DNA from: an uncultured Candidatus Saccharibacteria bacterium
GTDB taxonomy: Bacteria; Patescibacteriota; Minisyncoccia; Phycocordibacterales; CAIZIN01
NCBI GenBank assembly: GCA_964462115.1
Contig: CAYWWA010000002.1
Coordinates: 6,560-70,559 of the forward strand
Reading direction: 5' to 3'
Length of the DNA stretch: 64,000 nucleotides
Part shown: positions 3,348-59,393 of the stretch, in pieces
Numbering within the stretch: position 1 is the first letter of the stretch
Layout: the number at the start of each line of letters is the position of its first letter
Notes under the pieces: generated by a model
What the model was told of the DNA's origin: nothing
The model's database searches: none
Seen by the model: only the letters and a program-made list of their open reading frames with translations
Made by a program: the position numbers and the translations under genes

Positions 3348-3437
3348 TTATAAAATTATTTGTCAAAAAATCGATTTTGGTGTAAGATGGTTGGCGTTAT
3401 TTATTATTAATTTTTTATTTAAAAAAACAGAATTTTT

Positions 3438-10308: not shown

Positions 10309-11142
10309 ATGCTTGAAAAAATATATCAAACTGTGGTGATTAATCTTGATAAGGATACTGATCGGATTTTGTTTATGCGACAGCAGTTTGAGCAGCAGGG
10401 GATTAGTTTTGAACGAATTAAAGGGGTGGACGGTCGTCATTATCTACAACTAAACCCACCCGGCACTGTGGGGGCAGAATATGATGAGAGTAAAGCTATT
10501 TTAAAATCTAGATTTGGCACAGCTTTAAGACCTGGAGTTTTGGGTTGTGCACTGGCTCATCAGCAGGCCTATCGGGAGTTTTTAACTAATCCCAGATATC
10601 AGAATGTAAAATTTTTAGTTATCTTTGAAGATGACGTGGTAATAAAAAATAATTTTAAGACAATTTTAGAAGCAGAAATTCAAAAAAATCTTAATCGCGC
10701 CGAAACAAAGCGGTGGAACTGTTTACAGTTTGATTATCCCCAATATAATTTTAATCTTTTTAGTCATTATAGGATGCAATTTAATCTTTTTAAAAAATTT
10801 TCTAAAAATAAATTTAGACGTTTACCTTATTTATTTTTTGCTCCTATTGCAATTTTATTGGAGCAATTACGTGGTTTACTTTTAGGAAAATTTTTTGCTG
10901 GTTCCTATCCTGTTTTTATGAGGGTGCCATCTAACTTAGGTTGCTACGTAATAGATAAAAAATTAGCTAAAAAATTGATAGAAGAAAATAGTCCCATCAT
11001 TAATCTGGCTGATGTCAATACCGATGTGGTTTATCAAAAATACAAAAAAACCACCACACCACTCATCTTTTTTCAATATTTTCCCAGAATTTCATATCAA
11101 GATCATCATCAGTTTTTGTCTTCTTCTAGTCAAATAGGCTAA
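10309..11142 (+). CDS. Glycosyltransferase family 25 (LPS/LOS-type)
   Basis: N-terminus VVINLDKDTDRILFMRQQFEQQGISFERIKGVDG is GT25-like; 4-nt gap from upstream gene. Confidence 0.6.
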   Translation: MLEKIYQTVVINLDKDTDRILFMRQQFEQQGISFERIKGVDGRHYLQLNPPGTVGAEYDESKAILKSRFGTALRPGVLGCALAHQQAYREFLTNPRYQNVKFLVIFEDDVVIKNNFKTILEAEIQKNLNRAETKRWNCLQFDYPQYNFNLFSHYRMQFNLFKKFSKNKFRRLPYLFFAPIAILLEQLRGLLLGKFFAGSYPVFMRVPSNLGCYVIDKKLAKKLIEENSPIINLADVNTDVVYQKYKKTTTPLIFFQYFPRISYQDHHQFLSSSSQIG

Positions 11143-14138: not shown

Positions 14139-14154
14139 AAGACTGGTAGAAAAT

Positions 14155-14191
14155 AAGGCGGAAATCGCAAAGCGATTTCTGCCTTATTTTT
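14155..14191 (+). terminator. Intrinsic terminator after the SPFH gene
   Basis: 14-bp stem aaggcggaaatcgc/gcgatttctgcctt followed by a T-run. Confidence 0.6.
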
Positions 14192-14212
14192 ATGGATTTT
14201 TTCTCAAAAATA

Positions 14213-14221
14213 TGCTATAAT
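14213..14221 (+). promoter_or_regulatory. Extended -10 TGCTATAAT 6 nt upstream of ATG 14228
   Basis: atatgctataatatatagATG. Confidence 0.5.
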
Positions 14222-14227
14222 ATATAG

Positions 14228-14791
14228 ATGGATAGAATTAGAAATTTTTCAATTATCGCTCATATTGATCATGGAAAATCAACTTTGGCTGATAGAATGT
14301 TGGAAATTACCCATACTGTAGAAGCGCGCAAAATGCACGATCGGGTTTTAGATGACATGGAGTTAGAACAAGAGCGAGGAATCACTATTAAAATGCGACC
14401 GGTGCGAATGGAGTTTCTGAGTAAACGTGATCAACAAAAATATATTCTTAATTTGATTGATACTCCCGGACACATAGATTTTTATTATGAAGTATCGCGC
14501 GCGCTCAAGGCGGTGGAGGGAAGTGTGCTTTTAGTAGATGCAACTCAGGGGGTTCAAGCTCAAACTTTAACCACCTTACAAATGGCTCGTGATGGTGGTC
14601 TAACTATTATCCCTGTGATCACCAAAATCGATTCTCCGATTGCCAACGTGGAAGAAACTAAATTAGAAATTATGCAGTTGCTTAATTGTGAAGAGAAAGA
14701 AATTATTGCCGTCTCCGGTAAAACTGGTGAAAATGTAGAATTTTTATTGGAGGAAATCTGCACCCGAGTCCCAGCTCCCAAAAAAATTTAA
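14228..14791 (+). CDS. LepA/EF4-like translational GTPase, G-domain only (187 aa)
   Basis: IRNFSIIAHIDHGKSTLADRMLE (G1), DTPGH (G3), TKID (G4); ends where LepA domain II would begin; stop overlaps next start (TAATG). Confidence 0.7.
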   Translation: MDRIRNFSIIAHIDHGKSTLADRMLEITHTVEARKMHDRVLDDMELEQERGITIKMRPVRMEFLSKRDQQKYILNLIDTPGHIDFYYEVSRALKAVEGSVLLVDATQGVQAQTLTTLQMARDGGLTIIPVITKIDSPIANVEETKLEIMQLLNCEEKEIIAVSGKTGENVEFLLEEICTRVPAPKKI

Positions 14792-16332
14792 TGAAAAGTA
14801 TTGTCGCTAAAAAAATAAAATATAGCTTGTGGAACGAAATTGTAGGAGAAAAAGAAATTTTGAAAGAGGTAAGTTTTAAGTGCGATCAAAACGAACGGCT
14901 TTGTATTTTTGGTGAAAATGGCGCTGGTAAATCTACTTTGTTGAAAATTTTAGACGCAAGGATTGGCGATGGCGAGTCTGAAATTTTAAGTGGCAGCATT
15001 GAAAAAACTGGTCATGTGCGGACTTTTTACGTGGGCCAAGAATTTGATCAAAATTTTTTACAAAAAAATATTGGAGCATACGTGGAGGTGCTGGCAGGTA
15101 AAAGTTTATATAAAAAAGTTTTTGATTATGGGCGATTGTTGGGTTTTGATTTAGAAAAAAATTCGGAAAAACTTTGCAGCGAGCTTTCAGGTGGACAACA
15201 AAAGATTTTAGTGCTATCAGTGGCGTTTGCGATTTGTCCAGATTTCTTATTTTTAGATGAACCAGAAAACCATTTAGACATTGTCTCCAGAACTGAGTTA
15301 ATGGGAATGATGGCGGATTTTTCGGGAGGAATCATTTTTGTTTCGCATGATCGACTTTTGATTGATTCGGTTGTGACAAAAATTGGAGAGTTAGTTGGTG
15401 GTGTCATGTATATATCGGAAGGTAATTATGATGACTATATTGCCAAGAAAACCGAACGACTAGAAACAGCTCAAGATTCGTATGATAAAATCTCCAAAAG
15501 AATTAAAACTTTACAAGCGATGTTGGTGATTTTAAAAAAGAAAGCTATACGGAGTAATGGACAATCAGCTTATCACCGTGCTCTAAATGAATTGGAGGAG
15601 TTACGTAGAGAGCATGGTCAAGTAGAACGGCCAAGAGATAAAAAAACTAAAATTAATTTATCCTTAGATAATAATAATTTTCATCACGGTCGCCGTCTGT
15701 GGCAGATGAAAAACGGTGGTTTTAAATTTGAAAATATGAAGCATCGGATTTTTGGTGAGACAGATTTAGAAATTCGCTCTGGTGACAGAATTGTCCTCCT
15801 TGGCAGGAACGGAAAAGGGAAAACTACTTTCTTGAGGTGTTTAACTGGTGAAACTCAAATGCTAAGTGGTGAATCTATTTGGGCAGATAAGACTGCTTGG
15901 TCATATTTTGACCAGCACTGTGCCTTTGCTGCTGATCAAACCCCAATCAAAATTGTGCAAGAGAAATTGGCTTGCGGTGAAACAGACGCTAAAGCGGCGC
16001 TGGGTATGATGAAGTTTGATGACAAAAAAATGATTACTAAGGTTGGCCAACTGTCGGGTGGTGAACGAATGCGAATTCGGTTTGCGTTAGCTTTTGGTAA
16101 GAAACCAGATTTAATCATTTTAGACGAACCGACCAACCATATTGACGAAATCACTTGGGAGATTTTAGTAGCCGCTTTAGATGAAACCAAGAGCGCTGTT
16201 TTGTTAGTGACTCATGATTATGAGTTTATTGAAGAGTTTGAACCAAGCAAGTATTGGACTTTTTCTACTGACAACAAAGTGCTAGAGCGACATAAAACTT
16301 TAGATGAGCTTTTAGATGAAATGAGGGGTTAA
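14791..16332 (+). CDS. ABC-F family ATPase (two NBDs, no TMD)
   Basis: GENGAGKST / LSGGQQKILVLSVAF / FLFLDEPENHLD and GRNGKGKTT / LSGGERMRIRFALAF / LIILDEPTNHID with an inter-domain linker. Confidence 0.8.
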   Translation: MKSIVAKKIKYSLWNEIVGEKEILKEVSFKCDQNERLCIFGENGAGKSTLLKILDARIGDGESEILSGSIEKTGHVRTFYVGQEFDQNFLQKNIGAYVEVLAGKSLYKKVFDYGRLLGFDLEKNSEKLCSELSGGQQKILVLSVAFAICPDFLFLDEPENHLDIVSRTELMGMMADFSGGIIFVSHDRLLIDSVVTKIGELVGGVMYISEGNYDDYIAKKTERLETAQDSYDKISKRIKTLQAMLVILKKKAIRSNGQSAYHRALNELEELRREHGQVERPRDKKTKINLSLDNNNFHHGRRLWQMKNGGFKFENMKHRIFGETDLEIRSGDRIVLLGRNGKGKTTFLRCLTGETQMLSGESIWADKTAWSYFDQHCAFAADQTPIKIVQEKLACGETDAKAALGMMKFDDKKMITKVGQLSGGERMRIRFALAFGKKPDLIILDEPTNHIDEITWEILVAALDETKSAVLLVTHDYEFIEEFEPSKYWTFSTDNKVLERHKTLDELLDEMRG

Positions 16333-16357: not shown

Positions 16358-16366
16358 AGTTATAAT
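16358..16366 (+). promoter_or_regulatory. -10 TATAAT 6 nt upstream of the dedA ATG
   Basis: aagTTATAATtgaccgATG. Confidence 0.35.
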
Positions 16367-16372
16367 TGACCG

Positions 16373-16999
16373 ATGTCTTGGTTGAATGAATTAATGACTT
16401 ATTTAGATCCAGAATTTTTGATCACTACTTTCGGTGCAATTGGGTTATGGTTAATTGTCTTTGCTGAAAGTGGGTTATTTTTTGGATTCTTCTTACCAGG
16501 AGACTCCTTACTTTTTGCAGCCGGTATTCTATCTCATTTTTTTTCAATTCCATTTTGGATATTGGTAATCTTGTTGTGTGTGGCGGCTATTTTAGGTGAC
16601 ACTGTTGGTTTTTGGTTTGGCCAAAAGGTTGGTCCCAAAATTTTCTGCAAAGAAGATGGTCTGTTTTTTAAAAAAAAATATGCCGAAGAAGCACAAAAGT
16701 TTTTTGAACATCATGGACACAAAGCTATTTTTTTAGCTCGGTTTATTCCTATAGTGAGAACCTTTACGCCAATCGTGGCTGGAGTGGGGAATATGCCCTA
16801 CCGTATTTTCTTAACTTATAACATTGTTGGTGGAATTGTTTGGACGGTTGGCTTTACTTCAGCTGGATACTTTTTAGGTAATAGTTTTCCTCAAATCAAA
16901 GATAATTTAGAATTAGCGATTGTGATAATAATCTTTGTTTCTATTTTACCAGTAGCTTGGGAATTTTTTAAACATAAAAAGCAGCAAAAAAATCATTGA
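16373..16999 (+). CDS. DedA-family membrane protein
   Basis: FAESGLFFGFFLPGDSLLFAAG motif. Confidence 0.8.
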   Translation: MSWLNELMTYLDPEFLITTFGAIGLWLIVFAESGLFFGFFLPGDSLLFAAGILSHFFSIPFWILVILLCVAAILGDTVGFWFGQKVGPKIFCKEDGLFFKKKYAEEAQKFFEHHGHKAIFLARFIPIVRTFTPIVAGVGNMPYRIFLTYNIVGGIVWTVGFTSAGYFLGNSFPQIKDNLELAIVIIIFVSILPVAWEFFKHKKQQKNH

Positions 17000-18547: not shown

Positions 18548-20334
18548 ATGAACTCGGACTTGAAAAATAAAACATTTACTAACTGGCAAATATGTAAAAA
18601 GTTTTTTTCTGTCTTATTTGCTAGGTATAAAATAATTTGGATATTGGTTTTTGTTGGGGTTGGAATACACCGTGTTTTGAGTTTTGTGCCAGATTATTTA
18701 GTAAAACTTGGAATCGATAAGGGAAGTGAATTTATTGGTGGAATTCTAAGCAAAAATGATTATATAGAATATTTACTACTTCTAATTATAATTTATTTTG
18801 TGGCGATGTTTTTTCAAACCACGTTGGGATTAGTAAAAGATCGGGTCTATTTTATCTATCTACGTAAACAGGCAGTAGAGTTGAAACAAAAACTTTATTC
18901 ACACTTACTAGACTTGGATCATAAATTTTGGACAAAAACCCATAATGGATCTATCTTTTCAGCACAGAGTCGTGGAATCAATTCATTTTCAATGCAGACT
19001 AATATTTTTATTCAACGCTTATTGCCTCAAGTAATTTCTCTTATCACTTCTGTTATTATTATTGTGGTCATCGTAAAAGCCGCTTTATTAATAGCAGTTC
19101 TGGTCATAGCGATAATGTTTATCTGGTCTTATTGGCTACAACAAAAGATTACTAAAATAGTTAAAAAGAGAAACGAAGCTGCTGATAAAGAAACTGGTTT
19201 CTTTGCTGATGGTATTACTAACGTTCAAGCAATCAAAAATTTTGGTAAAGAAAGTTTTATGATGAAGCTGTATAAACTTTTAATTGATGATACTGAAAGT
19301 AAAAATCTAGAAATTAATGCTAAATATGTTTTAATGCAAGTTCTTAATGGTCTGATGAATGACACTGGAGTTGGTTTAATTTTAGTAGTTTCTTTTTGGG
19401 GATTTTTGAATGGAGAAATAAGTATTGGCTCACTGTTTTTTGTTTATGCTTCCGCCTCTCAACTAATTAATAGTTTTTCAGCTTTGAATTATACTTATCA
19501 AGATTTGGCGCAACATTTTGCTCATATGGATAAAATGTTTGTGTTGTTGGAACAAAAAGCTGAAATTATTGATGACAAAAATGCCACTGAGCTAAAAGTA
19601 AGCGAAGGAAATATAAAATTTGAGGAAATAACTTTTGGGTACAATGAAGACAGAAAAATTTTTAATCAATTATCTTTAAATATTTTACCAGGAGAAAGGT
19701 GGCTTTCGTCGGTGAGACCGGTGTAGGTAAAACAACCTTAATCAATTTAATTTATCGTTTGTATGATTTAGATAGTGGTCGGATTTTAATTGATGGGCAA
19801 GATATTAAAAAAGTAAAACAAAGCTCACTGCATAATGCAATGTCAATTGTGCCACAGGAAACAGTTTTGTTTAATGATACAATTTTTAACAATATTGCTT
19901 TCTCTAATCCAGAAGCCACAAAGGAGGAGGTTTGGCAAGCAATTAGCTTTGCTCAACTAGATAATTTTATCAATAATCTGAAAGATAAGGAAAATACATT
20001 GGTAGGAGAGCGGGGGATAAAATTATCGGGTGGCGAAAAACAACGAGTCTCGGTTGCACGAGCAATTTTAGCAAATAAGAAAATTTTAATTTTAGATGAG
20101 GCCACTTCATCACTTGATTCACAAACCGAAAAAGAGCTTTCTGATGACTTGCAAAAACTAATGAAGGGCAGGACCTCTATCATTATTGCTCACCGCCTTT
20201 CAACCATTATGGATGCGGATAAAATCGTGGTATTAAAAGATGGAAAAATTGCAGAAATTGGAAAGCACCTTGAGCTATTAGAACAGACGACTATTTATGC
20301 TAAATTATGGCATTCGCAATTTAGGATTAGTTAG
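18548..20334 (+). pseudogene. ABC exporter (fused TMD-NBD) disrupted by a 1-nt frameshift near 19697
   Basis: TMD ORF ends LNILPGER then shifts frame; the NBD ORF continues VAFVGETGVGKTT (Walker A split across frames), LSGGEKQRVSVARA, ILILDEATSSLD; homopolymer ggagaaaggtgg lacks one g. Confidence 0.65.
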
Positions 20335-25726: not shown

Positions 25727-26614
25727 TTATTTAAGCCCTCGCAAAAAATCTAGCCAATTCATTTCTTTTTTACCTTCTGGAATCACTGTTAAGATTTCTA
25801 ATTTTTCATTTTTAAGTTCAGCTGTTTTAATCACAAGGCGGATTTGTTTGTGATTGTGCTCTACTAAAGTCCAAGCGTTTGGCCAACCATAATAGGCTTG
25901 AATTTTTAAGAAATTTTTTCGTGCTAAATTACTTTGTTGCAAATCTTGCCAACTAATTTCAGCCTCCTGTTTATTGATTTTTTTAGTATAACTAGCCTCT
26001 GCGTGATTTTGAGCTTGGGGAGTAATTTTGTTCTCTATCCAATCTGGCAAAATCTCAACCAGCAACCTTGCATTTAGCTCTGCTAATTTTTGTTCCAGAA
26101 TCTCTCGGTTAAAAATTTCTGAATTCCCAAGCTGAGCTTGTTTTAAAATTGGCCCATGATCCATTTCTTTATCTAACAACATGACCGACACCCCGATATT
26201 TTTTTCATCATCTAAAATTTGATATTCAATGGGAGCAGGACCGCGATATTTAGGTAAAAGTGATGGATGAGCGTTAAGGGTCTGGTGGGGTGGTAGCCCC
26301 AAAAATCTTTCAGGAATTATTTTGCCATAGGAGGCTACAATCGCTACATCAACCCGGTGTTGAGAGATAAAATTTTGTAAAAACTCAAAAGCTTCCTCAT
26401 CTAACTTATTTGGCTGAAAAATCGGCACCTGATTATTTTGAGCCCAAATTTTGGTCAGGGTGGGCTTAATTTCCATTTTACGACCTTGGGCTTGATCGGG
26501 GGTTGAAACAATCAAGCAGGGCTTAAAATTAGCCTTTAACAAGGTGTCCAAGATGAAAACGGAAAATTCTGAAGTGCCGTAAAAAATAAAATTAATTTGG
26601 GGCATGGGTGACAT
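25727..26614 (-). CDS. fmt: Methionyl-tRNA formyltransferase
   Basis: SLLPKYRGPAPIEYQILDDEKNIGVSVM; N-terminal formyltransferase domain; adjacent to tRNA-fMet. Confidence 0.85.
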   Translation of the reverse strand: MSPMPQINFIFYGTSEFSVFILDTLLKANFKPCLIVSTPDQAQGRKMEIKPTLTKIWAQNNQVPIFQPNKLDEEAFEFLQNFISQHRVDVAIVASYGKIIPERFLGLPPHQTLNAHPSLLPKYRGPAPIEYQILDDEKNIGVSVMLLDKEMDHGPILKQAQLGNSEIFNREILEQKLAELNARLLVEILPDWIENKITPQAQNHAEASYTKKINKQEAEISWQDLQQSNLARKNFLKIQAYYGWPNAWTLVEHNHKQIRLVIKTAELKNEKLEILTVIPEGKKEMNWLDFLRGLK

Positions 26615-33941: not shown

Positions 33942-35351
33942 ATGGCTGAGACCAAAAAAGATGAAGTTTTAATGGAAAAAATCATTTCGCTTTGTAAAAG
34001 ACGTGGTTTTATTTTTCAAGGCAGCGAAATTTACGGCGGTTTAGCTGGAACTTTTGACTATGGGCCACTGGGTGTAGCTTTAAAAAACAATATTCAAAAT
34101 TTATGGTGGAAAAGATTTGTGGATAATAGGGAAGACATGTTTGGTATGGATGCGGCGATTTTGATGAATCCTCGCGTCTGGGAAGCCACAGGACACACGG
34201 CAACTTTTGCAGATCCGTTAGTGGAGGATCTGAAAACTCATAAACGATATCGGGTGGACCATCTTTTGGAGGATAATGGGATTTCGCCAATTGGAATGAC
34301 TGTTGAGACAATGGATAAAATTTTGAAAGAAAAGAAAATCTTATCACCAGACGGTAATCAGCTAGGTGATGCTCGTCAATTTAATTTAATGCTCCAAACT
34401 AAAATTGGTGCCGAACAGCGAGAAGAAGATATTTCTTATTTACGTCCAGAAACCGCCCAAGGGATATTTGTTAATTTCAAAAATGTGGTAGACAGTTTTC
34501 ATCCTAAGCTGCCGTTTGGGATGGCTCAAATTGGTAAAGCTTTTAGAAACGAAATTGCTCCGCGAGATTTTGTTTTTCGAGTGCGTGAGTTAGAGCAAAT
34601 GGAAATTGAATATTTTTTGAAAGCACCCAAAACTGATGAAGAATGGCAGGAAATTTTTTCTGAATTAAAAAAAGAAACTTGGGCGTTCTTTCAAGACTTG
34701 GGTTTGTCAGATCAAAACGTACATGAACTAGAAGTCTCTGAGGAAGACCGAGCTTTTTATTCCAAACGCACAGTCGATTTTGAGTTTGATTATCCTTTTG
34801 GTCGGAAAGAACTTTCTGGTTTAGCTTATCGCACTGATTACGATCTAAAACGACATCAAGATTTTTCGAAAGTTGCTTTAGAATATTTTGACGAAGAAAC
34901 TAAAGAAAAATTTGTGCCTCACTGTATTGAGCCGTCGTTTGGAGTCGGACGTCTTTTATTGGCGGTTTTGTGTGCCAGCTACACCGAAGATAATTTAGGC
35001 GAAGGACGATCTTATTTAAAATTACCAGCTAAAATTGCTCCCACCTTAGTTGCTGTCTCTCCTTTGTTAAAGAACAAACCGCAACTAGTCGCTAGAGCTC
35101 GTGAGATTTTTACTGATTTAAAACAAGAATTTGGCCGAGTAGTTTTTGACGACAACGGTAACGTTGGTAAACGTTACCGTCGTCAAGATGAAATCGGCAC
35201 TCCATTTTGTGTGGTAGTAGATTTTGATACTATCGGTGATGAGGCTAAACCAGCTGACAATAAAGTTTCGATTCGCTTTCGTGATACCGGAGAACAAGAA
35301 AGGGTAGAGGTTGGTGAATTAAAAAAATGGCTCAAAAATAAACTTAATTAA
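33942..35351 (+). CDS. glyQS: Glycyl-tRNA synthetase (alpha2 dimeric type)
   Basis: CKRRGFIFQGSEIYGGLAGTFDYGPLG N-terminus and class II aaRS motifs. Confidence 0.88.
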   Translation: MAETKKDEVLMEKIISLCKRRGFIFQGSEIYGGLAGTFDYGPLGVALKNNIQNLWWKRFVDNREDMFGMDAAILMNPRVWEATGHTATFADPLVEDLKTHKRYRVDHLLEDNGISPIGMTVETMDKILKEKKILSPDGNQLGDARQFNLMLQTKIGAEQREEDISYLRPETAQGIFVNFKNVVDSFHPKLPFGMAQIGKAFRNEIAPRDFVFRVRELEQMEIEYFLKAPKTDEEWQEIFSELKKETWAFFQDLGLSDQNVHELEVSEEDRAFYSKRTVDFEFDYPFGRKELSGLAYRTDYDLKRHQDFSKVALEYFDEETKEKFVPHCIEPSFGVGRLLLAVLCASYTEDNLGEGRSYLKLPAKIAPTLVAVSPLLKNKPQLVARAREIFTDLKQEFGRVVFDDNGNVGKRYRRQDEIGTPFCVVVDFDTIGDEAKPADNKVSIRFRDTGEQERVEVGELKKWLKNKLN

Positions 35352-37266: not shown

Positions 37267-38352
37267 TTATGACTTCTTGTGCTTAGAAACACTCATGATA
37301 ATTCCCGCCGCAGTTAACTCAAAGAACAAGGCGGTGCCACCCTGTGAAATAAACGGTAGGTGTTCCCCCAAAATCGGAATAATTCCAGTCATGGAAAAAA
37401 TATTAATTAGTGCTTGGCCAATAAATAACAAAATTATTCCTAAAACAATTAACGAACCAAAAATTTCTGCCTGTAAGGCAATTCTTAAAGCTGAAAATGA
37501 TAGGGAAAGAAAAAGTAGAATTACAACAACACAACCCACAAACCCTAACTCCTCCCCTACTACTGAAAAAATTGAATCGGACTGACTTTCTGGCAAGTTG
37601 CCATATTTTTGGATACTCTGATTATAACCCCGGCCCCAAACACCTCCTGAGCCAAGAGCAATCTTTGACTGATTGGTGTGCCAACAACTTCCTTGAAAAT
37701 TACTATCACAGTTAACAAAACCATCGATTCGGTTGAGTGCATAAGGTGTTTGCCAGATCATCAAGATACCCATCACCACCAGTAGAACTACTGACGGCAC
37801 CCAGATATACCAACGACTCCCAGCTGCCACATACATCACAAACAAAACCACCGCTAAGATAATTACAGTCATTCGGTCGGGTTGTAAAATTAATAAAGTG
37901 CCACCCAGCAGTAACGGCACCAGCCACAACAAAATACCAGAAAGATGTTTAAGTTTGGAATTAAATTCCACCAACAAAAAAGCCACAAAAATAATAGTGG
38001 TAATTTTTAATATCTCGACTGGTTGAAAGGTAAAAAAATAGAGATCCAACCATCTGGTGGAATTATTGAAGGTTGCCCCCAAAGGAGTAAAGACCAAAGC
38101 AGTAATAACTAAAGCCAAGAGATAAGCAATGGTGGCTGTTTTCTTAAATACCAAATAATTTATTTTAGAAAATAGCCAGCATGAAATCAAACCCCCGACA
38201 CAACCTATCACCAAGTGATTAAATAACAAAGCAGGATAGTTACTAGTCTTCAAAAAAAGAGCAGCTGAAGCGGAGTAAAAAAACACTATCCCAACCATCA
38301 ATAGCGCCAGCACCGACCATAAAAACCAAGAATCTATTTTTCCGACTCGCAT
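37267..38352 (-). CDS. ftsW: SEDS-family peptidoglycan polymerase (FtsW/RodA)
   Basis: LPESQSDSIFSVVGEELGFVGCVVVILLF matches the SEDS LPE..TDFIF..GEE.G motif; 10 TM helices. Confidence 0.8.
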   Translation of the reverse strand: MRVGKIDSWFLWSVLALLMVGIVFFYSASAALFLKTSNYPALLFNHLVIGCVGGLISCWLFSKINYLVFKKTATIAYLLALVITALVFTPLGATFNNSTRWLDLYFFTFQPVEILKITTIIFVAFLLVEFNSKLKHLSGILLWLVPLLLGGTLLILQPDRMTVIILAVVLFVMYVAAGSRWYIWVPSVVLLVVMGILMIWQTPYALNRIDGFVNCDSNFQGSCWHTNQSKIALGSGGVWGRGYNQSIQKYGNLPESQSDSIFSVVGEELGFVGCVVVILLFLSLSFSALRIALQAEIFGSLIVLGIILLFIGQALINIFSMTGIIPILGEHLPFISQGGTALFFELTAAGIIMSVSKHKKS

Positions 38353-41922: not shown

Positions 41923-42375
41923 TTATTCAGTTACTGTGCCGCCAGCTTTTTCAATCACTGCTTTAGCAGAACTGGTCACGGCTAACCCATTAAAACTAAG
42001 TTTTTTAGTTAATTCGCCACCACCCAAGACTTTAACCTTAGGTAGTTTACCTTTTCTTAATTCCACCAACCCTTTTTCTTTTAGAGTTTTAATTGAAACC
42101 TTGTCGCCATTGTCAAAACTATTTTCAACAACTGTCAATCTAATTTCAACCGGATATTCACTTTTAATTGTTTTGTTAGAATTTTTACCTCGTCCACGCA
42201 TCTTAGGTAATCGTTTGATCACATCACGAAACTCTGGACGAATTTTGCGACCCGAACGAGCATTTTGTCCTTTGGTACCACGACCAGCAGTTTTACCCTT
42301 ACCAGATGATTGGCCGCGGCCAAGCTGTTTGGAGGTAATACGTTTGGTTTTAGATTTTAGATTATGAGTTTGCAT
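41923..42375 (-). CDS. rplO: 50S ribosomal protein L15
   Basis: GRGQSSGKGKTAGRGTKGQ Gly/Lys-rich N-terminus. Confidence 0.85.
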   Translation of the reverse strand: MQTHNLKSKTKRITSKQLGRGQSSGKGKTAGRGTKGQNARSGRKIRPEFRDVIKRLPKMRGRGKNSNKTIKSEYPVEIRLTVVENSFDNGDKVSIKTLKEKGLVELRKGKLPKVKVLGGGELTKKLSFNGLAVTSSAKAVIEKAGGTVTE

Positions 42376-50766: not shown

Positions 50767-53700
50767 TTACTTTTCTACCACAAAAGTATTTCCTCTACTT
50801 CTACCAAAAATATCCGGCATATATAAAGATTCAATTTTGGCAGGCAGGTGTTGATATTTTCCAGGTACCAATGCTCGCAAATAATACTCATATTGATAAA
50901 CACCGCTGTTTACTCTTTCACTGTATAAGAAAATTCTGTCATCGTGATTCTCCTCTACGCTTGGATAAAATCTGTTATCAAGTGAAGTGTGTCTAATTAA
51001 ACTTTGATCTTCAGTTGCAAAACTGAAGTTAACAATTTCAAAACCAGCTGGAATATAATCTTCTATTGCAATGTCAGCTGCATTAAACGGCACTGTTAAA
51101 GTTAATCTGCCTTTAATTACATCACCAACTTTAGCAGAAAGAATTGGAATCTTTTGCTCTTCATCATCAAGGCGGAAAAATTCACGAACGACACCCAAAC
51201 CTTCGTCACGAGCTGGTAAATTTTGTACAGGTAAATAATACTTAAACAGTATATCGTAATAGAAATTATTTTTATTTTTAGTATTATCAATTTTTAAGAA
51301 AGTTAACGGCAAAACTTTTTTACGCTCTAGATCATTTATTGACAAGAATTGACTTTGTGTTTCAAAAATATTTTGACCACCAAAATTAAAATTAAATAAT
51401 TCATCACCGTTTAATGTACCAATTAAATCAAAGTCTGCCTCGTTTTCTTTTTGCCATTTCAGATATTGCACCATTGCATCTATCACTTCAAAAGTGTTCT
51501 GTGTGTTACCCCACGCACCCTGATTGTTTCGGCTAGCCAAAAGCCATTTCATGATATTGGAAATCATTACATTTTTATCTTGATGAGCCACAAATACTTT
51601 CAGAGCCAGTGCGGTATTTTTAATAGAGGTTTCATAGAGATTATAGCTGGTATTTTTACCAGGCTTAAAATACGCACCACGACCATCAATGGAAAGTCTG
51701 TTAGTGAATTGCTTATAAATTTCCTGATTATTAGGATACATAATAGCCAAATAAGCTAAAGCTGGACTGCTGATATTTTCGTTTAGATATTGTTTATCAC
51801 TTATAAAGCTTGATACGATAGAATTAATTACTGTATATTTTTTACCTGAAAGATTCAATAAGAATCCAGCTCCAATCAAAGTGTCTTTATCTATTTCTCT
51901 TTGTGTATAACGATTATTTGCTTCGGTTTCAATATATTTTAATGCTTTATTTAAATATTCTTCATCTATTGCAAATCCTGCATTTTTAATAACCAACAGC
52001 CCCTCTACCACCCGCAACGTTAGATAAAAATTTGAATAATAAATTGATGGATAATAAGAAAATCCACCATCCAATTTTTGAGTGGCATAAATTTTCTTAA
52101 GTGTAGAATTTATAATATCATCAATTGTGTAATCAATTCCATCTTTGTTAATTGTTCCAATTTCCCCATCAACATTTTTCAAGTCATAGACGCTACTCAA
52201 AATAGCAACAGAACTCATCGCAGAAGTTAACTGCTCAGAACAACCATAAGGATAATTAACCATGTATTTTAGAGCGTCTTGTAAAAAGACAACTAAGGTA
52301 GCATTGGTATTTATAGTTATTCCACCTTTATCTGCAAGAACATTCTCAGGTATATAAAAATATTCTTTAGAAATATTTTGGTTAGTCATATTGGCTGTCG
52401 ATACTGTTTCGTAAGTTTGGTTTGGGGTAATTTTTATTGTTTGTTCTACTTCATCAACACTATCATTTAATTCAGCTTTCAAAGTAAAAGTAACTTGACC
52501 TTCTACTAATGTTGTCGGTGCTTCAACGTTAAAATAAATTATTTCTGATTTACCAGCATTGATTTTAATTATTCGTTCAGTTTTTTCCAGCAAGTTTAAA
52601 TCCTTACTTTGCAAAGAAACCTTTACACTTACAGACTTATTAGTTTGATTGAAAACCGTAGCTCCCAATTCAAAATTATCACCAGGTACTATAAATCTTG
52701 GTTTAATCGGCGAAACCATTAAATCTTTTTTTGTAGTAAATTCAGCGTAGCTCGCACCAAATTTTGAATCTAAACTTTGAGCTACAACCTCTGCTTGCCA
52801 AGTTGTTAAATTGTCTGGTAAAGTGAAAGAAAGTTGGGTTAACCCTTTTTGATCGGTTTCTGCTTGAGCTATCCAGAAAGCAGTATCTTTAAATTCACCA
52901 CGTTTCTTTGAAGCTAAATCTTCTGCACCATTTCCGCCACCACCACCCTTCGTTCCTGTTGGTATATCCATTTCGTATAAAATATTTTTTAAGTTATGAG
53001 TAGTATTAATGGTATTATAAAAATAATTATAAAAATGAAGCCAAGGGTTTTTCTTTGGATTTCCCTTGAGAGCCAAAACCGACATATCAACTACCGCAAC
53101 AGAAACTTCAGACTGAACGGGGTTATTTTTTTCATCTTTCGATTCAATTTGCAAATTCACATTCTCACCTGGCAGATAAAATGTTTTATCACTTTTAACT
53201 GACAAAAATATTTTCTTTGCATCAGAATTAACACCAAAATCCACATTCCCAAATTTAATCTCTGGTTCATCTGTTAGAAGCAAAACCGATACAAAAATAT
53301 TTGGAGCATAATTTTCTTTAATTAAGAAACTGTATTCTGCTAATCCACCGATCACATCTATAATTTTATAATCAAAAATTACTCCCCGCTCAATTGTAAT
53401 CAGTGCTTTTGCTTTAGCTGCTGGGGATTTAATCAAAATCGTAGCCATATCTCCAACTTTAAGCTCATTTTTTTCTACTACTAAATCTAAACTGTAATTA
53501 TTGTTAGGTGGAACTTGCACGGTTTTATCGCCGTAAATATATAGACTAATAGTGGTGCTGATGTTATTTTTTCTATTATCGCTGCCAACAATTTCAATTT
53601 CATATTCGCCCTCTTCGGCTATTGAAAAATCATTAATGTAGTTGCCGTTTTTATCAGTACCAAGTTTTATCGTTTTAACTTCAGTTGTACTTTTATCATA

Positions 53701-56700
53701 ATGATAATAATAACCACCATCAACCTCTTGTCGTTTATAAATTTCGTAAGAAATTTTTTTAATCTTTGCTATTAAATTAGAAACTGAAATTGGCTTACCA
53801 AAAGTGTCAACAGTTTTAATCCTTAACTTATTTTCACCATCAACATTGGTGTAATATTTATCAGTTTTAGCACCAATGTAATATTCGCCTCTATGTACTA
53901 TAAAAGATTTTTGAATGGAAATTGTTTTACCACTAGCGTCTTGCACCGAAACAGAAACTGTGATTATTTTACTTTTTTCATCATTATCAGATAATTTTAA
54001 TTCTTGTTTAATTATCGCTTGACCATCAGTATTTAAACTGGTTTCACCACGTAATAAATATTTATCACCATAATCACAATTATAGCAATAATACCAACCG
54101 CTTCCAAAGGAAAAATATTCATCAGTATATTTATCAAAATAATAATCTTGCTCAGTAATAGTATAAGAAACATTTCCGCTATCAAGCGGTACACCAAAAT
54201 AATAATCAGCTTGGAGAGATAAATTTAAAGTATCACCACTTAAATATTCCTCCTTATCCGTGACAGCTTCCAGTTTGAAAGCAGCTGGAGTATATTCTTC
54301 TACTGAAAAGTTAAAATATCCATCACTAGCGGTGTTAATCTGATAGCTCCCCAATTTAGCGTCTTTTGGTAAAGTAAATTCACCAGCGAAAGAGCCATAT
54401 TTATTATTTTTTAAAGTTGTTGCAAAAACTTGATCCCAACCTGAATCACGAATAGAGACTTGGATTTCTTGGTCTTTTAGTATCTCATAATTTCCATCAA
54501 AACCAAGTCGTTGTATACCCTTAAAATAAACCACATCACCTGGACGATAAATTGGTCTATCAGTGTAAAGATATGTTTTGAGTGCGTATTCTGCAGTGGT
54601 CCAATTTGAACCAAGCGTATCAGCCCAGTCAGAAATGATTGCATTTTCATTATTATAACTAATTACCGCACCATCAACATAGTTTTCAATTTTAAGTTTC
54701 GCGATTCCATCTTGGTCAGTAAAATTAGTGTCAGATAAAGTTAAGCCATCTCCAAACGCTGTTTGGTCCCAAATTCCATTAACATGCTTATATTGAGATA
54801 CTATCGCACCAGCTATTGGTAACAATGTTTTAGCGTTATTAACCCAATAGATATTTTTACTATTTTCAATTAGATTATCTTGTGGTTTAATTTTTTCTTC
54901 ATAATGGTCACGATTAACTTCTTTTTTGCCGACCGCCAAGTTAGAAACGCTTAAATAAACATGTTCGAACCTCGGTACCTCAAAATCCTCTGCATAGTAA
55001 TCACTCACATAAGTGTAATCTGGATTGTTTAATGTGATAACAAATTGTCCACGAGTGTCAGCAAAATAATCTTTCAAATCAATTTGAAAATAATTATTTA
55101 CAAAATATGTTTTCGGTAAATCAATTCTAGCTGTTTTAATTTCAGTACATTTGTTAGGAGCTGGTTGCTTAATACTTAAACTACCTAATACTTCTAAGAA
55201 GTCAGTCGCATTCATTTTGCAAATTTGTAAATCAACAAAAGTTAAATTCTCTACAGCAAAAGTTAATTTAGTTTTATCTGGTGTGGTAACATTATATTGC
55301 TTTTGTAAATTGTAAATATGTTTATATATGTGTTTCGGTTTAGTGGTGTTAAATTCTAAACTTTGATTTATTTTTTGACCAAACACATCTTCCAAATTTA
55401 AATTCATCAAATAATAACTTTCTGGCAATAAACCATATTTAATACTGGTCTGATATTGACCATTTTGACACTGATTATAGTCGCCTTCTACCATATATGA
55501 TCCTCTCCAGTTATTATAAACTATATAATTTTCCACCACACTCAGGTGCGTCCTCATACCCTCCTCACCTGGTTTTTTAATTGGAGAATTAGAACAAATT
55601 ATCATCTCTGTCAGAGAAGCATCTTTGTCATTATTTTTAGGCAAAGTGTTGTAAATTTGAAATTTAGGATAGGTAGTAAAATGTCCGCTGACATTATCGG
55701 CTTTAGAAATGTATTCAGATCCATCGGATAAAACAATTTTTGGTAAAATGATTTGTAGTTGTTCATTCAAACCAAATTCGTTAGCATTAAAAGAAAGAAC
55801 AATTCTCTGTTTATCATCAACTTTAATACATTCATCTGTTAATCCATTTTTTATTTCTCGCAAATAACCATCTTTATCAGTTTCAGTTTTACAATTCTGT
55901 TGATATTCAACTTTTTTTAAACCCTTAACCTTAAACTCTGTTTTGTCTTTATTTATTTCCTCTGTAAAAACTACTTCAATTTGATCATTAGGATCAAAAA
56001 TATTTTTATCACCACTGTAACCATTTTGGGTAATAATATTAAAACCAGATAAAATATTACCAACAAAGAAAGAATAATTCTGTGAATCACTAAATGGCAA
56101 GTTACCTTTTAGTGTAGAAACCAAACCGACTTTGACGCTGTAGGAAGTATCATAATCCCAGGATTTTTTATGTCCATACTTATCTGTTTTCTGATAAATA
56201 TTTATTTTTGATTTATCTTCGACCTCTAAATATTTTTTAGCTTTTTTGTCATATTTTTTACTCGTGCCATATTCTAAAATAATTTCACTTTTATCACCAC
56301 TGGAGGTGGTAATTTCAATGTCACTCTTAATGCTATCAATATCCACTTCTTGATTGTAGTGCAAGAAAAATGGCGATTTATGAGAGATCTTTTCACTTGT
56401 TTTATTATCCAATCTTAAATGTCGAGTATCAAAAGTAAAAGAAACTGGATCCACAGTTAATCCCTCGATGGAAGTTAGCTGACCAATCTCAACCGTATAG
56501 CGAGTAGCTGGATTAAGTTTATCTTTTGGTAAAAATTGTAACTGACGAGTAGTAGTCCACTTCCATTTTCCATCAACTTTTGGACTGATAGAAATCGGTA
56601 GATTATTTTTTGGCTCTGAAAATGCAGCCGCGACCTGTGCTAACAAGCCCTCACCGTTTTCTTGTTGATCGAGAGTTGTTAAAGCTACCATTGGTCGATT

Positions 56701-57201
56701 AAAGACGATGGTAATCTTTGTATCTTCATCTACCTCTGTATTTTGCTCTGGAAAAACTGCTTCAATTTTAGGATTTTCTGCTACCAAAATATCACCAGAC
56801 ATTTTTAAATTAGCTGTTTCTAGAGAAACATTATAGTAAGTTCCAATTTCTAAATCCTTTTTCGGTTTATAAAGAAGAGCTTGTTCTAAATTATCCCCTT
56901 CAATCTCTACCCAATCACCAGCTATTTTAGGTTCAAAAGAAATATTTTCACGAGCTTCATCTGAAGTAATTTCATTTGGTAATTTAATAGTAATAACCGC
57001 CGATTTAGAAATTGACTCCGGCACAAAGGTTTCCACCACTGCTACTTCTCCAGTATATTTTTTAACACTGTGATCAGAAATATAAAAAGAAAAAAATATA
57101 ATTAAAATCAATGAAATAAAAGTAGAAATAATAATAAAAATCGGCTTGTTTCTGTTTTTATTTTCAACAGACAAACCGGAAACCATTTCTTGATTTTTCA
57201 T
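50767..57201 (-). CDS. Bacterial alpha-2-macroglobulin family protein (2144 aa) with N-terminal TM anchor and thioester motif
   Basis: NYPYGCSEQLTSAM (CxEQ thioester), very large beta-rich ectodomain, divergent from a pbpC-like gene as in yfhM-pbpC; ATG at 57201 sits 6 nt after a TGCTATAAT. Confidence 0.75.
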   Translation of the reverse strand: MKNQEMVSGLSVENKNRNKPIFIIISTFISLILIIFFSFYISDHSVKKYTGEVAVVETFVPESISKSAVITIKLPNEITSDEARENISFEPKIAGDWVEIEGDNLEQALLYKPKKDLEIGTYYNVSLETANLKMSGDILVAENPKIEAVFPEQNTEVDEDTKITIVFNRPMVALTTLDQQENGEGLLAQVAAAFSEPKNNLPISISPKVDGKWKWTTTRQLQFLPKDKLNPATRYTVEIGQLTSIEGLTVDPVSFTFDTRHLRLDNKTSEKISHKSPFFLHYNQEVDIDSIKSDIEITTSSGDKSEIILEYGTSKKYDKKAKKYLEVEDKSKINIYQKTDKYGHKKSWDYDTSYSVKVGLVSTLKGNLPFSDSQNYSFFVGNILSGFNIITQNGYSGDKNIFDPNDQIEVVFTEEINKDKTEFKVKGLKKVEYQQNCKTETDKDGYLREIKNGLTDECIKVDDKQRIVLSFNANEFGLNEQLQIILPKIVLSDGSEYISKADNVSGHFTTYPKFQIYNTLPKNNDKDASLTEMIICSNSPIKKPGEEGMRTHLSVVENYIVYNNWRGSYMVEGDYNQCQNGQYQTSIKYGLLPESYYLMNLNLEDVFGQKINQSLEFNTTKPKHIYKHIYNLQKQYNVTTPDKTKLTFAVENLTFVDLQICKMNATDFLEVLGSLSIKQPAPNKCTEIKTARIDLPKTYFVNNYFQIDLKDYFADTRGQFVITLNNPDYTYVSDYYAEDFEVPRFEHVYLSVSNLAVGKKEVNRDHYEEKIKPQDNLIENSKNIYWVNNAKTLLPIAGAIVSQYKHVNGIWDQTAFGDGLTLSDTNFTDQDGIAKLKIENYVDGAVISYNNENAIISDWADTLGSNWTTAEYALKTYLYTDRPIYRPGDVVYFKGIQRLGFDGNYEILKDQEIQVSIRDSGWDQVFATTLKNNKYGSFAGEFTLPKDAKLGSYQINTASDGYFNFSVEEYTPAAFKLEAVTDKEEYLSGDTLNLSLQADYYFGVPLDSGNVSYTITEQDYYFDKYTDEYFSFGSGWYYCYNCDYGDKYLLRGETSLNTDGQAIIKQELKLSDNDEKSKIITVSVSVQDASGKTISIQKSFIVHRGEYYIGAKTDKYYTNVDGENKLRIKTVDTFGKPISVSNLIAKIKKISYEIYKRQEVDGGYYYHYDKSTTEVKTIKLGTDKNGNYINDFSIAEEGEYEIEIVGSDNRKNNISTTISLYIYGDKTVQVPPNNNYSLDLVVEKNELKVGDMATILIKSPAAKAKALITIERGVIFDYKIIDVIGGLAEYSFLIKENYAPNIFVSVLLLTDEPEIKFGNVDFGVNSDAKKIFLSVKSDKTFYLPGENVNLQIESKDEKNNPVQSEVSVAVVDMSVLALKGNPKKNPWLHFYNYFYNTINTTHNLKNILYEMDIPTGTKGGGGGNGAEDLASKKRGEFKDTAFWIAQAETDQKGLTQLSFTLPDNLTTWQAEVVAQSLDSKFGASYAEFTTKKDLMVSPIKPRFIVPGDNFELGATVFNQTNKSVSVKVSLQSKDLNLLEKTERIIKINAGKSEIIYFNVEAPTTLVEGQVTFTLKAELNDSVDEVEQTIKITPNQTYETVSTANMTNQNISKEYFYIPENVLADKGGITINTNATLVVFLQDALKYMVNYPYGCSEQLTSAMSSVAILSSVYDLKNVDGEIGTINKDGIDYTIDDIINSTLKKIYATQKLDGGFSYYPSIYYSNFYLTLRVVEGLLVIKNAGFAIDEEYLNKALKYIETEANNRYTQREIDKDTLIGAGFLLNLSGKKYTVINSIVSSFISDKQYLNENISSPALAYLAIMYPNNQEIYKQFTNRLSIDGRGAYFKPGKNTSYNLYETSIKNTALALKVFVAHQDKNVMISNIMKWLLASRNNQGAWGNTQNTFEVIDAMVQYLKWQKENEADFDLIGTLNGDELFNFNFGGQNIFETQSQFLSINDLERKKVLPLTFLKIDNTKNKNNFYYDILFKYYLPVQNLPARDEGLGVVREFFRLDDEEQKIPILSAKVGDVIKGRLTLTVPFNAADIAIEDYIPAGFEIVNFSFATEDQSLIRHTSLDNRFYPSVEENHDDRIFLYSERVNSGVYQYEYYLRALVPGKYQHLPAKIESLYMPDIFGRSRGNTFVVEK

Positions 57202-57207
57202 CACTCA

Positions 57208-57278: not shown

Positions 57279-59393
57279 ATGAAGATTTTTTTGAAAAAAA
57301 TTAAAAAATATAAAAAAAAATTATCTATCTTCTCTATTTTTATCATTATTTTTTTTAGTTTTTCTCTATTTTTATTATTTGACATAAAAGAAAAATATCA
57401 AAACAATTTATCCGTAATCATATATGACAGGAACGAAGAAATTATTTCCATCAAAACAAATATTAAAGATCATTATGTCTATGAAACCAAAGAAATACCA
57501 GATGATTTAGAAAAATTACTACTCAAGAAAGAAGATAGATATTTTTACTGGCATTTTGGAGTTAACCCAGTCAGCAACCTGCGAGCGTTGTGGCAGATTT
57601 CAACCATTCAAAAACATGGCGGGGCCTCCACCATTACCCAACAACTAGCTAAAAACCTACTTGGCAACGAAAATAATCGAACATTTTATAATAAAATCAA
57701 AGAATTATTCTACACTTTTAATTTAGAATTATTTTTTTCTAAAAAAGAAATTTTAACAATGTATGCTAATACTACTTTTTTTGGCAATCAAGCTCAGGGT
57801 TTTGAAACAGCATCACGCATGTATTTCAATAAAGATCTAGCCAAACTAAATCACAATGAGCAAATTTCTTTGCTTGCCACAATCTCTTATCCCAATAATC
57901 GTAACCCATGGAAAGATAGCGAACAAAAATTTGCTACAGCTTTAAATCAACAGATCTCGCCAGACGAAACTTTTACAAAACCGCTGATCAATAAAAATTT
58001 TAATTTTCAAAATGAAGCCAATTTTGAATTAAGCTCTATTGGATTTTCTTGCGAAAAAAGCTGCCGCACCACTATAGATGTAAAAATTACTGAAAAAATT
58101 CGTCAAATTATTAAAGAGTATACCGACAAAGAAAGTTCGCGCGGTGCAAAAAATTCCTCTGTGGTTGTGATTGATCCCAGAAGTGAAGAAATAATTGCTA
58201 TAGTTGGTAGTGTAGATCCTAGTTCTACAAGAAATGGTAATAAAATAAATATGGCAATTAAACCGCGACCGATCGGTTCCACTATCAAACCATTAATGTA
58301 TCTTAAGGGTTTTGAAGATGGTTTGAGACCTTATACCATAGTAGAAGATCGTGAATATAAATATCAAATCGGACTTGGGTTCGCCCAATATCCCAAAAAC
58401 TATGACGGAGCATATCAAGGAGAGGTTTCTCTACATTATGCCTTAAGCAACTCTCTTAATGTACCGTCTGTTAAAGTTTTGGAATATATTGGTTTAGAAA
58501 AATTTTACAATTTTTTAGATCAAAAATTAAAATTTGAACCAATTCAAGATTATGATAATTATCAATATGGTATCGCTCTTGGTGGTCTAGAAATGGACTT
58601 AACTACCCTCACCCACTATTTTACTATTTTTCCACGTTTAGGAAATATCGCCCCGCTTAAGATTTCAACTGATGGGCAAAATAATTTTAAATTGGCTCCA
58701 CAAAATAAAATTGAATCATATCAAGAAATTTCTGATAAAAAATATGTAGCACTAATTCATAAAATAATTTCTGATCGTCTTACTGGTGTTGGTCAATTTT
58801 CACTGGAAAGTTCGCTCAATTTGCCAATAAAAGATTATGGAGTTAAGACCGGAACCTCTCGCGATTGGCATGATTCGTGGGTTGTTGGATATACCGGTGA
58901 TTTTGTTGTGGGGGTTTGGGTTGGTAATACAGAAAACACTTCACTGCAACAAATTTCTGGCGCCCAAGGAGCTGGAGTTGTTTGGAATCAAGTAATGAAC
59001 CTAATGATTAATTCAAAATATAACCACCAAACATCCATTAATACAAGCGATGTTATGCCAATTAAAATCAATAATTCTATTGAATGGGGCCTTACTGATG
59101 ACGATATTGAATTAAGTAAAAATCTGATGAAAGAAGATATTTTAATCTTGTCACCACACGACGAAGATAAGTTTGAATTTGAAAAAACAAAATCTATCCC
59201 ACTAAAAAGTTCACAGCTAGTAGAGTGGACCATTAAAAAACTAACTAACACTGGCGACAAAATTATCTTTTCCGACAGTAAAAAAGAAAGTTTTTGGCAA
59301 CCAAGCGAATCTGGTTATTATCAAATTTTTGCTAAAAATCCGGAAACAAATTTTTCTCAAACTATCTATATTAAAATTCAAGCCGATAAATAG
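57279..59393 (+). CDS. pbpC: Class A penicillin-binding protein (GT51 transglycosylase plus transpeptidase), PbpC-like
   Basis: GT51 motifs EDRYFYWHFG, GGSTITQQLAKNL, KEILTMYANTTFFG; transpeptidase SIGSTIKP (SxxK), SNS, KTGTS; 704 aa; adjacent to A2M. Confidence 0.75.
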   Translation: MKIFLKKIKKYKKKLSIFSIFIIIFFSFSLFLLFDIKEKYQNNLSVIIYDRNEEIISIKTNIKDHYVYETKEIPDDLEKLLLKKEDRYFYWHFGVNPVSNLRALWQISTIQKHGGASTITQQLAKNLLGNENNRTFYNKIKELFYTFNLELFFSKKEILTMYANTTFFGNQAQGFETASRMYFNKDLAKLNHNEQISLLATISYPNNRNPWKDSEQKFATALNQQISPDETFTKPLINKNFNFQNEANFELSSIGFSCEKSCRTTIDVKITEKIRQIIKEYTDKESSRGAKNSSVVVIDPRSEEIIAIVGSVDPSSTRNGNKINMAIKPRPIGSTIKPLMYLKGFEDGLRPYTIVEDREYKYQIGLGFAQYPKNYDGAYQGEVSLHYALSNSLNVPSVKVLEYIGLEKFYNFLDQKLKFEPIQDYDNYQYGIALGGLEMDLTTLTHYFTIFPRLGNIAPLKISTDGQNNFKLAPQNKIESYQEISDKKYVALIHKIISDRLTGVGQFSLESSLNLPIKDYGVKTGTSRDWHDSWVVGYTGDFVVGVWVGNTENTSLQQISGAQGAGVVWNQVMNLMINSKYNHQTSINTSDVMPIKINNSIEWGLTDDDIELSKNLMKEDILILSPHDEDKFEFEKTKSIPLKSSQLVEWTIKKLTNTGDKIIFSDSKKESFWQPSESGYYQIFAKNPETNFSQTIYIKIQADK

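Follow-up and report, generated by a model that had tools for sequence, protein, structure and literature searches.

EF4 (LepA), a ribosome factor, is nearly universal and among the most conserved proteins of bacteria. What, then, is a gene that encodes its GTPase (G) domain alone? Such a gene lies at positions 14228–14791 of a 64-kb stretch of contig CAYWWA010000002.1 (assembly GCA_964462115.1), the whole of which we call the window; features are on its plus strand unless stated otherwise. An earlier note on this DNA proposed either a truncated lepA remnant or one half of a pair formed with the ABC-F gene that follows. Our preferred reading is that an old truncation of a resident full-length Paceibacterota lepA left a stand-alone G-domain gene that has been selectively maintained, to which we give a probability of about 45%.

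The reading frame encodes a LepA G domain

The gene runs from an ATG to a TAA stop and encodes 187 aa, identified by translation and profile matches as domain I (the G domain) of EF4/LepA without further domains. All five G motifs can be read from the translation: G1, or P-loop, AHIDHGKST (residues 11–19, 14258–14284), G2, or switch I, RGITIK (residues 50–55, 14375–14392), G3, or switch II, DTPGH (residues 78–82, 14459–14473), G4 TKID (residues 132–135, 14621–14632) and G5 SGK (residues 163–165, 14714–14722). The catalytic histidine, His82 within G3, is intact as well. Using Pfam, the GTP_EFTU model PF00009 matched residues 3–182 over profile positions 2–187 of 188 with 177.5 bits (cutoff 26.5), a match that places the protein in the translational GTPase superfamily. 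The NCBIfam lepA model TIGR01393 scored 267.7 bits (profile positions 2–183 of 595), versus 132.5 bits for TypA/BipA and 104.4 bits for EF-G. The top PDB matches were all EF4, and the best of them (5imq_B, E = 8.8e-62) aligned over chain residues 7–189 of 610, ending at RIPPPK. Judged by these matches, the G domain is unambiguously LepA-type and nearer to LepA than to other translational GTPases.

The reading frame extends two residues beyond PAPK, the conserved motif at the end of domain I. The domains that complete the EF4 architecture (PF03144 for domain II, PF14492 for domain III, PF00679 for domain V and PF06421 for the C-terminal domain) are absent from the open reading frame (ORF) and from the window, and the TIGR01393 score stays below the family cutoff of 533.9 bits. 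When the window was searched with a full-length LepA query (tblastn), the G domain alone was matched and no other lepA piece was found. The earlier note was right to describe a complete translational-GTPase G domain that stops where LepA domain II would begin, with no remainder of lepA nearby. Its assignment to LepA stands too, as the domain did not classify with another GTPase family.

A clade of G-only genes under purifying selection

Among the matches listed, the nearest proteins were P0002 (87% identical) and P0003 and P0004 (both 82%). Their contigs (L001, L083 and L084) carry complete ORFs that end three residues after PAPK and are followed by unrelated DNA: a tRNA-Glu gene on the opposite strand, 16 nt past the stop, in L001, and AT-rich spacers with secreted-protein genes in L083 and L084. 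In tblastx comparisons, the homology between the window and these contigs spans the ORF from ATG to stop; the flanks are unrelated. The three contigs stop at an identical TAA codon position; the stop in the window comes one codon before it. Neighbour-joining trees of G domains placed the four genes in one clade, with bootstrap values of 99% and 98.5%, and this clade is nested within the ordinary LepAs of Paceibacterota. Since the clade is well supported and its members share the same or an adjacent stop position, the data point to one ancestral truncation behind all four.

Pairwise among the four, synonymous sites are at or near saturation (proportion of synonymous differences, pS, 0.62–0.80) with a proportion of nonsynonymous differences (pN) of 0.10–0.145 (Nei-Gojobori, 182 codons). 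In pairs where dS was computable, dN/dS was at most about 0.08. As LepA-conserved positions we took the alignment columns in which 77 other LepA G domains show at least 95% conservation. There are 82 such columns, and 78 of them are unchanged in all four clade members. The distance of the clade to outgroups is 0.53–0.55, and that of full-length LepAs 0.47–0.56 (median 0.52). None of the clade relatives carries a frameshift, the ORF being intact in four deeply diverged genomes. Taken together, the strong purifying selection, the retained LepA residues and the canonical promoter rule out a simple decaying pseudogene. Thus the proposed truncated lepA remnant survives as a truncated lepA derivative, whereas the decay that the word implies does not.

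A non-functional stub that has yet to decay is very unlikely for the same reasons. Related assemblies do contain several kinds of lepA lesion (in L002, in L086 and, inside domain II, in P0083), and an ABC exporter gene in the window is broken as well, at Walker A (18548–20334). However, the ORF has stayed open, with low dN/dS, in four genomes at or near synonymous saturation, the window gene keeps a canonical promoter, and the identical stop in three of the four argues that the truncation predates their divergence. Even less credible is an assembly chimera or sequencing error behind the stop or the junction with the next gene. The window contig does come from a metagenome-assembled genome, and some short LepA proteins derive from error-ridden long-read contigs (L085 and L168), but independent assemblies from other samples hold the same truncated protein with the same or an adjacent stop codon, and the ABC-F gene downstream starts at its natural N-terminus.

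Clade-specific residues occupy six positions (H37, R39, Q48, F63, Y86 and L146), four of them in or beside the switch regions. We considered the switch II substitution S86Y (DFSYEV to DFYYEV) as a signature of domain loss and rejected it, since the same tyrosine occurs in the full-length LepAs P0154, P0160 and P0168.

As a separate observation, an exact DnaA-box-like 9-mer, TTATCCACA, lies about 25–45 nt past the G-only gene in L083 (around 1340–1352) and L084 (around 805–817). Downstream of it are a dinucleotide repeat, either (AT)n or (CT)n, and a TATAAT; the genes beyond these differ. The window contains one 9-mer of this type (34118–34126), which equals the chance expectation.

Other truncated and interrupted lepA genes

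Full-length lepA is the norm around this clade. The GTDB species representatives listed, with G-domain identities of 68–72%, encode LepAs of 593–617 aa with no internal stops, and when a C-terminal region of LepA served as the query, nearly all matches were full-length (590–670 aa). The top 120 matches to the G domain were all short (172–326 aa) and suggested clade-wide splitting of lepA, an idea that we rejected in view of the intact representatives. Most of these short matches are fragments cut off by the end of a contig or lie on contigs full of frameshifts, such as L085 and L168. The conserved G-only gene is genuinely unusual.

Three more G-only genes were found outside the clade. One (L167) encodes 183 aa, ends at a TAG and is followed by a convergent gene. 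The second (L172) encodes 184 aa, also ends at a TAG, and forms a monocistronic unit (50–823) consisting of TATAAT-N6-ATG, the ORF and a hairpin terminator; that is, it has the promoter layout of the window gene plus a terminator of its own. Its closest relative, P0083 (88% identical), runs on into domain II and then breaks, so breaks outside the linker between domains I and II occur as well. The third (L119, 4992–5603, 203 aa) belongs to a distant Q/N-rich lineage among the metagenome matches listed and lies between mnmA-like and dihydroorotase-like genes. We found no remainder of lepA in the 10 kb covered at this locus, and none at any G-only locus. Membership of L167 and L172 in the four-member clade was rejected, given bootstrap values of 2–32% and differing stop codons. 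With different stop codons and a weak or absent phylogenetic link to the clade, L167, L172 and L119 are probably independent truncation events.

Beyond the terminator of L172 lie an opposite-strand tRNA-like sequence (recognized by eye, GGATTCGAACC motif) and then the signal peptidase gene lepB. In E. coli, lepB is the classical operon partner of lepA; in relatives from the candidate phyla radiation (CPR) it is not a conserved neighbour of the gene.

Two further loci carry a lepA that is interrupted in the linker. In L002, an otherwise intact lepA of 619 codons carries a single in-frame TGA (3417–3419) in its expanded linker. The resulting 189-aa product is on record from contigs of more than one sample, and the TGA could reflect readthrough, recoding or a recent nonsense mutation. 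In L086, a perfect 20-bp inverted repeat (GTGTCGGGTGTTTGACACCC ... GGGTGTCAAACACCCGACAC, 10559–10611) is inserted in frame in the linker and brings two stops, after which a TTG stands at the first residue of domain II. The insertion is recent, as the closest relative, P0010, lacks it. We found no further copies of the repeat in 168 loci. In its form it is reminiscent of the small palindromic elements of Rickettsia, which are inserted within genes there. We also compared gene order for signs that the G-only gene occupies the ancestral lepA locus: the MurJ and DivIC neighbours of L002 and L086 have no match in the window, and the one match there is to the ATPase part of an ABC exporter (55% identity). 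Since our searches for lepA lesions began from a G-domain query, they give no basis for calling the linker a mutational hot spot.

The interrupted genes bear on the main rival to our reading, a two-piece EF4 that arose by gene fission. Domains II, III and V and the C-terminal domain would then form a separate polypeptide, encoded outside the window, that assembles non-covalently with the G domain on the ribosome. The break coincides exactly with a domain boundary, and the full-length genes of L004 and L026 tolerate long insertions in this linker. The G domain is also under essentially the same constraint as in a full-length LepA. Moreover, L002 and L086 are cut at this same linker with both halves in one frame and no further lesions, and a restart after the linker stop is plausible in genomes where internal cistrons are translated without Shine-Dalgarno sites. 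However, no C-terminal piece is present in the window or at any G-only locus, and the C-terminal-query search yielded no clean stand-alone C-terminal ORF, although partners below about 67% identity would be missed. The fragment P0216 is no such ORF, as it begins inside the G domain, and the L086 insertion is a recent event. In addition, the C-terminal half would have had to relocate separately for each of at least four independent G-only origins. We thus regard a two-piece factor as unlikely, and favour simple truncation over relocation of the C-terminal half because independent G-only genes with different stops exist.

Somewhat less probable still is an extra copy, in which a full-length lepA persists elsewhere in the genome and the G-only ORF is a paralogue with an accessory or regulatory role. 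The different neighbourhood in each genome and the restriction of homology to the ORF are what one would expect of a small relocated unit, and our view of this genome is the 64-kb window. Against this, the clade is nested in ordinary Paceibacterota LepA with rates in the full-length range, and repeated independent duplication of a G domain is less parsimonious than truncation of a resident gene. There was also no sign of an association with mobile elements, phages or defence: PADLOC gave no hit for the G domain, and matches in phages (at most 57% identity) were ordinary lepA.

The transcription unit and the downstream ABC-F gene

The G-domain gene is separated from preceding transcription by an intrinsic terminator (14149–14201, detected by terminator scan) that belongs to the upstream SPFH/Band-7 gene (PF01145) and consists of a 20-bp stem (14149–14191) followed by a T run. 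An extended -10 element, TGcTATAAT (14213–14221), ends 6 nt before the ATG, and the G-domain mRNA is accordingly predicted to be leaderless. The same layout recurs in the window, where 10 first-in-operon genes, the G-domain gene included, have a perfect TATAAT 6–7 nt before the ATG and 3 further genes have a hexamer with one mismatch at that spacing. Examples are the genes at 203, 5031, 7547, 14228, 16373, 28213 and 30201 and, on the minus strand, 25727–26614 and 37267–38352. A Shine-Dalgarno-like motif precedes only 1 of the 48 window genes. Leaderless mRNAs thus appear to be standard for first cistrons in this genome.

The second cistron (14791–16332) encodes an intact ABC-F ATPase of 513 aa, as judged from Pfam, NCBIfam and orthologue alignment. 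It has neither a promoter nor a Shine-Dalgarno sequence of its own, and the next gene (DedA/VTT family, 16373–16999) has its own TATAAT (16361–16366), 6 nt before the ATG, which marks the 3' limit of the unit. For these reasons we predict a transcription unit of two genes, the G-domain gene and the ABC-F gene. At their junction, a run of seven A (A7, 14780–14786) precedes a TAATG stop/start overlap (14789–14793), in which the TAA of the G-domain gene (14789–14791) and the ATG of the ABC-F gene (14791–14793) have one A in common. The ABC-F protein aligns end to end with its orthologues, and since its N-terminus matches theirs residue for residue, the overlap reported in the earlier note is real.

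By its domain composition the 513-aa protein is a member of the ABC-F family. PF00005 occurs twice, the linker PF12848 spans residues 204–274, and Pfam detected no membrane domain. The Walker A motifs (GENGAGKST and GRNGKGKTT), signatures (LSGGQQ and LSGGER) and Walker B motifs (LFLDEPE and IILDEPT) are all present. It thereby shares with the ABC-F translation ATPases of the EttA, Uup, YbiT and antibiotic resistance (ARE) types the two ABC domains, the PF12848 linker and intact catalytic sites. It differs from the named subfamilies in that it falls below every curated NCBIfam cutoff: the best score was 306.8 bits for NF000355 (cutoff 380), with 184 versus 599 for EttA and 234.8 versus 900 for Uup. 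The family to which it belongs is widespread in Paceibacterota, with proteins of about 503 aa. Two insertions of five residues each in the first nucleotide-binding domain, LWNEI and, near Walker A, GDGES, are absent from nine orthologues.

Do the two genes form a dedicated pair, as cooperating ribosome factors or as a fusion made by slippage on the A7 run? The TAATG overlap indicates that they would be co-transcribed, and the predicted common transcript without a separate ABC-F promoter fits such a pair. Likewise, a -1 slip or one extra A on AAAAAAA would put the ABC-F gene in frame (PKKNL-MKS...). However, 16 of the 36 same-strand junctions in the window overlap or lie within 13 nt, with a second one-base overlap at 42375. 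Because such tight packing is routine in this genome, TAATG is uninformative on a specific partnership. The window also has 82 A-runs and 39 T-runs of seven or more bases; the A7 slippage site probably arose by chance, and the G-only relatives have nothing downstream to which they could be fused.

An ABC-F homologue was found near none of 166 lepA loci (5–10 kb flanks) and beside none of the five other CPR G-only genes (L001, L083, L084, L167 and L172), all of which have a different downstream neighbour; nor does the distant L119 locus have an ABC-F gene. Conversely, lepA was upstream of ABC-F orthologues at none of three loci, and two orthologues (59% and 57% identical) are preceded by unrelated genes with gaps of 60–165 nt. 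Across these loci the adjacency is not conserved and is found in this genome alone, which gives no support to a two-component pair of ribosome-binding factors. We consider a dedicated pair or fusion highly improbable. In our reading, the genome is compact and without Shine-Dalgarno sites, the ABC-F gene is just the cistron that happens to follow, and the coupling is incidental.

The window is AT-rich (36% GC) and otherwise has an ordinary chromosomal gene content. NfeD and the SPFH protein are encoded upstream; downstream follow genes for the DedA family protein, ribosomal proteins L10 and L7/L12, sigma-70, DnaE, UvrD, a P-type ATPase and alpha-2-macroglobulin. Two loci of the window deserve mention in their own right. 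The ABC exporter (transmembrane and ATPase domains) is encoded in two overlapping ORFs (18548–19726 and 19699–20334) owing to a frameshift at Walker A (...GERWLSSVRPV* / MAFVGETGVGKTT...), so that the gene is a true pseudogene or else the sequence contains an error. On the minus strand, a 2144-aa bacterial alpha-2-macroglobulin (50767–57204; MG2, bait region, A2M, TED and MG10) adjoins a penicillin-binding protein (57279–59393), a large investment for a small genome.

Discussion

How could a lone G domain have come about, and what might it do? We propose that a normal full-length lepA was truncated within the flexible linker that joins domain I to domain II, and that domains II, III and V and the C-terminal domain were lost from the locus. 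The remaining product would still bind and hydrolyse GTP and would still dock on the factor-binding site of the ribosome (sarcin-ricin loop and L7/L12 stalk). We infer both abilities because nearly all LepA-conserved residues are kept, including the switch regions and the catalytic histidine. Without domain II and the C-terminal domain, the tRNA-directed action of EF4 would be lost, and the protein may be a minimal module that occupies or senses the factor site in a GTP-dependent manner. An E. coli strain deleted for EF4 shows no obvious growth defect and the loss is tolerated (PMC4245954); absence of the full factor should therefore be tolerable.

Several points weigh against this proposal. 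A C-terminal half acting in trans, or an intact second lepA, could be encoded outside the window, and the pattern of constraint fits a G domain that works with its old partner domains equally well. We know of no function for a translational-GTPase G domain in isolation, and the activity that we propose is read from conservation. Finally, the family is small, four clade members and three separate cases, all from metagenome assemblies. Taken more broadly, it is possible, although we say so tentatively, that in a small Paceibacterota lineage EF4 was reduced or split, giving a free-standing G domain long kept by selection. In a full-text literature search we found no account of a LepA that is naturally stand-alone or split, which is not proof of absence.

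If this broader reading is true, the G domain of a translational GTPase would be useful alone, or in trans with separately encoded partner domains. The recurrent independent truncations in the linker (L167, L172 and L119) would then represent a repeatable evolutionary route and not random decay. A natural G-only EF4 would reveal which part of the factor stays useful without the tRNA-contacting domains, and would offer a minimal system for the action of a G domain at the ribosomal GTPase centre. Should a second half be encoded elsewhere, this would be a clean fission of a translation-factor gene in a reduced genome. There is a practical side as well: marker-gene and completeness pipelines that count lepA may score a genome as lepA-positive from the stub.

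How does the gene compare with known systems? EF4/LepA itself (TIGR01393; structures 3CB4, 3DEG, 2YWE, 5IMQ and 4W2E) has the same type of G domain, with G1–G5 and the catalytic histidine, but comprises about 600 aa versus 187 aa, the window protein having no domains II, III and V and no LepA-specific C-terminal domain. Nanoarchaeum equitans, with its very small genome, is known for split protein genes, which resemble the window lepA in that the break falls at a domain boundary and the genome is reduced. However, no second half was found for the window gene, and the halves seen in L002 and L086 may be recent lesions. Isolated G-domain fragments of EF-Tu and EF-G have been made in the laboratory, and they are likewise lone G domains of translational GTPases, folded units that bind nucleotide. 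Those fragments were engineered, whereas the G domain described here is the product of a natural gene that is kept by selection.

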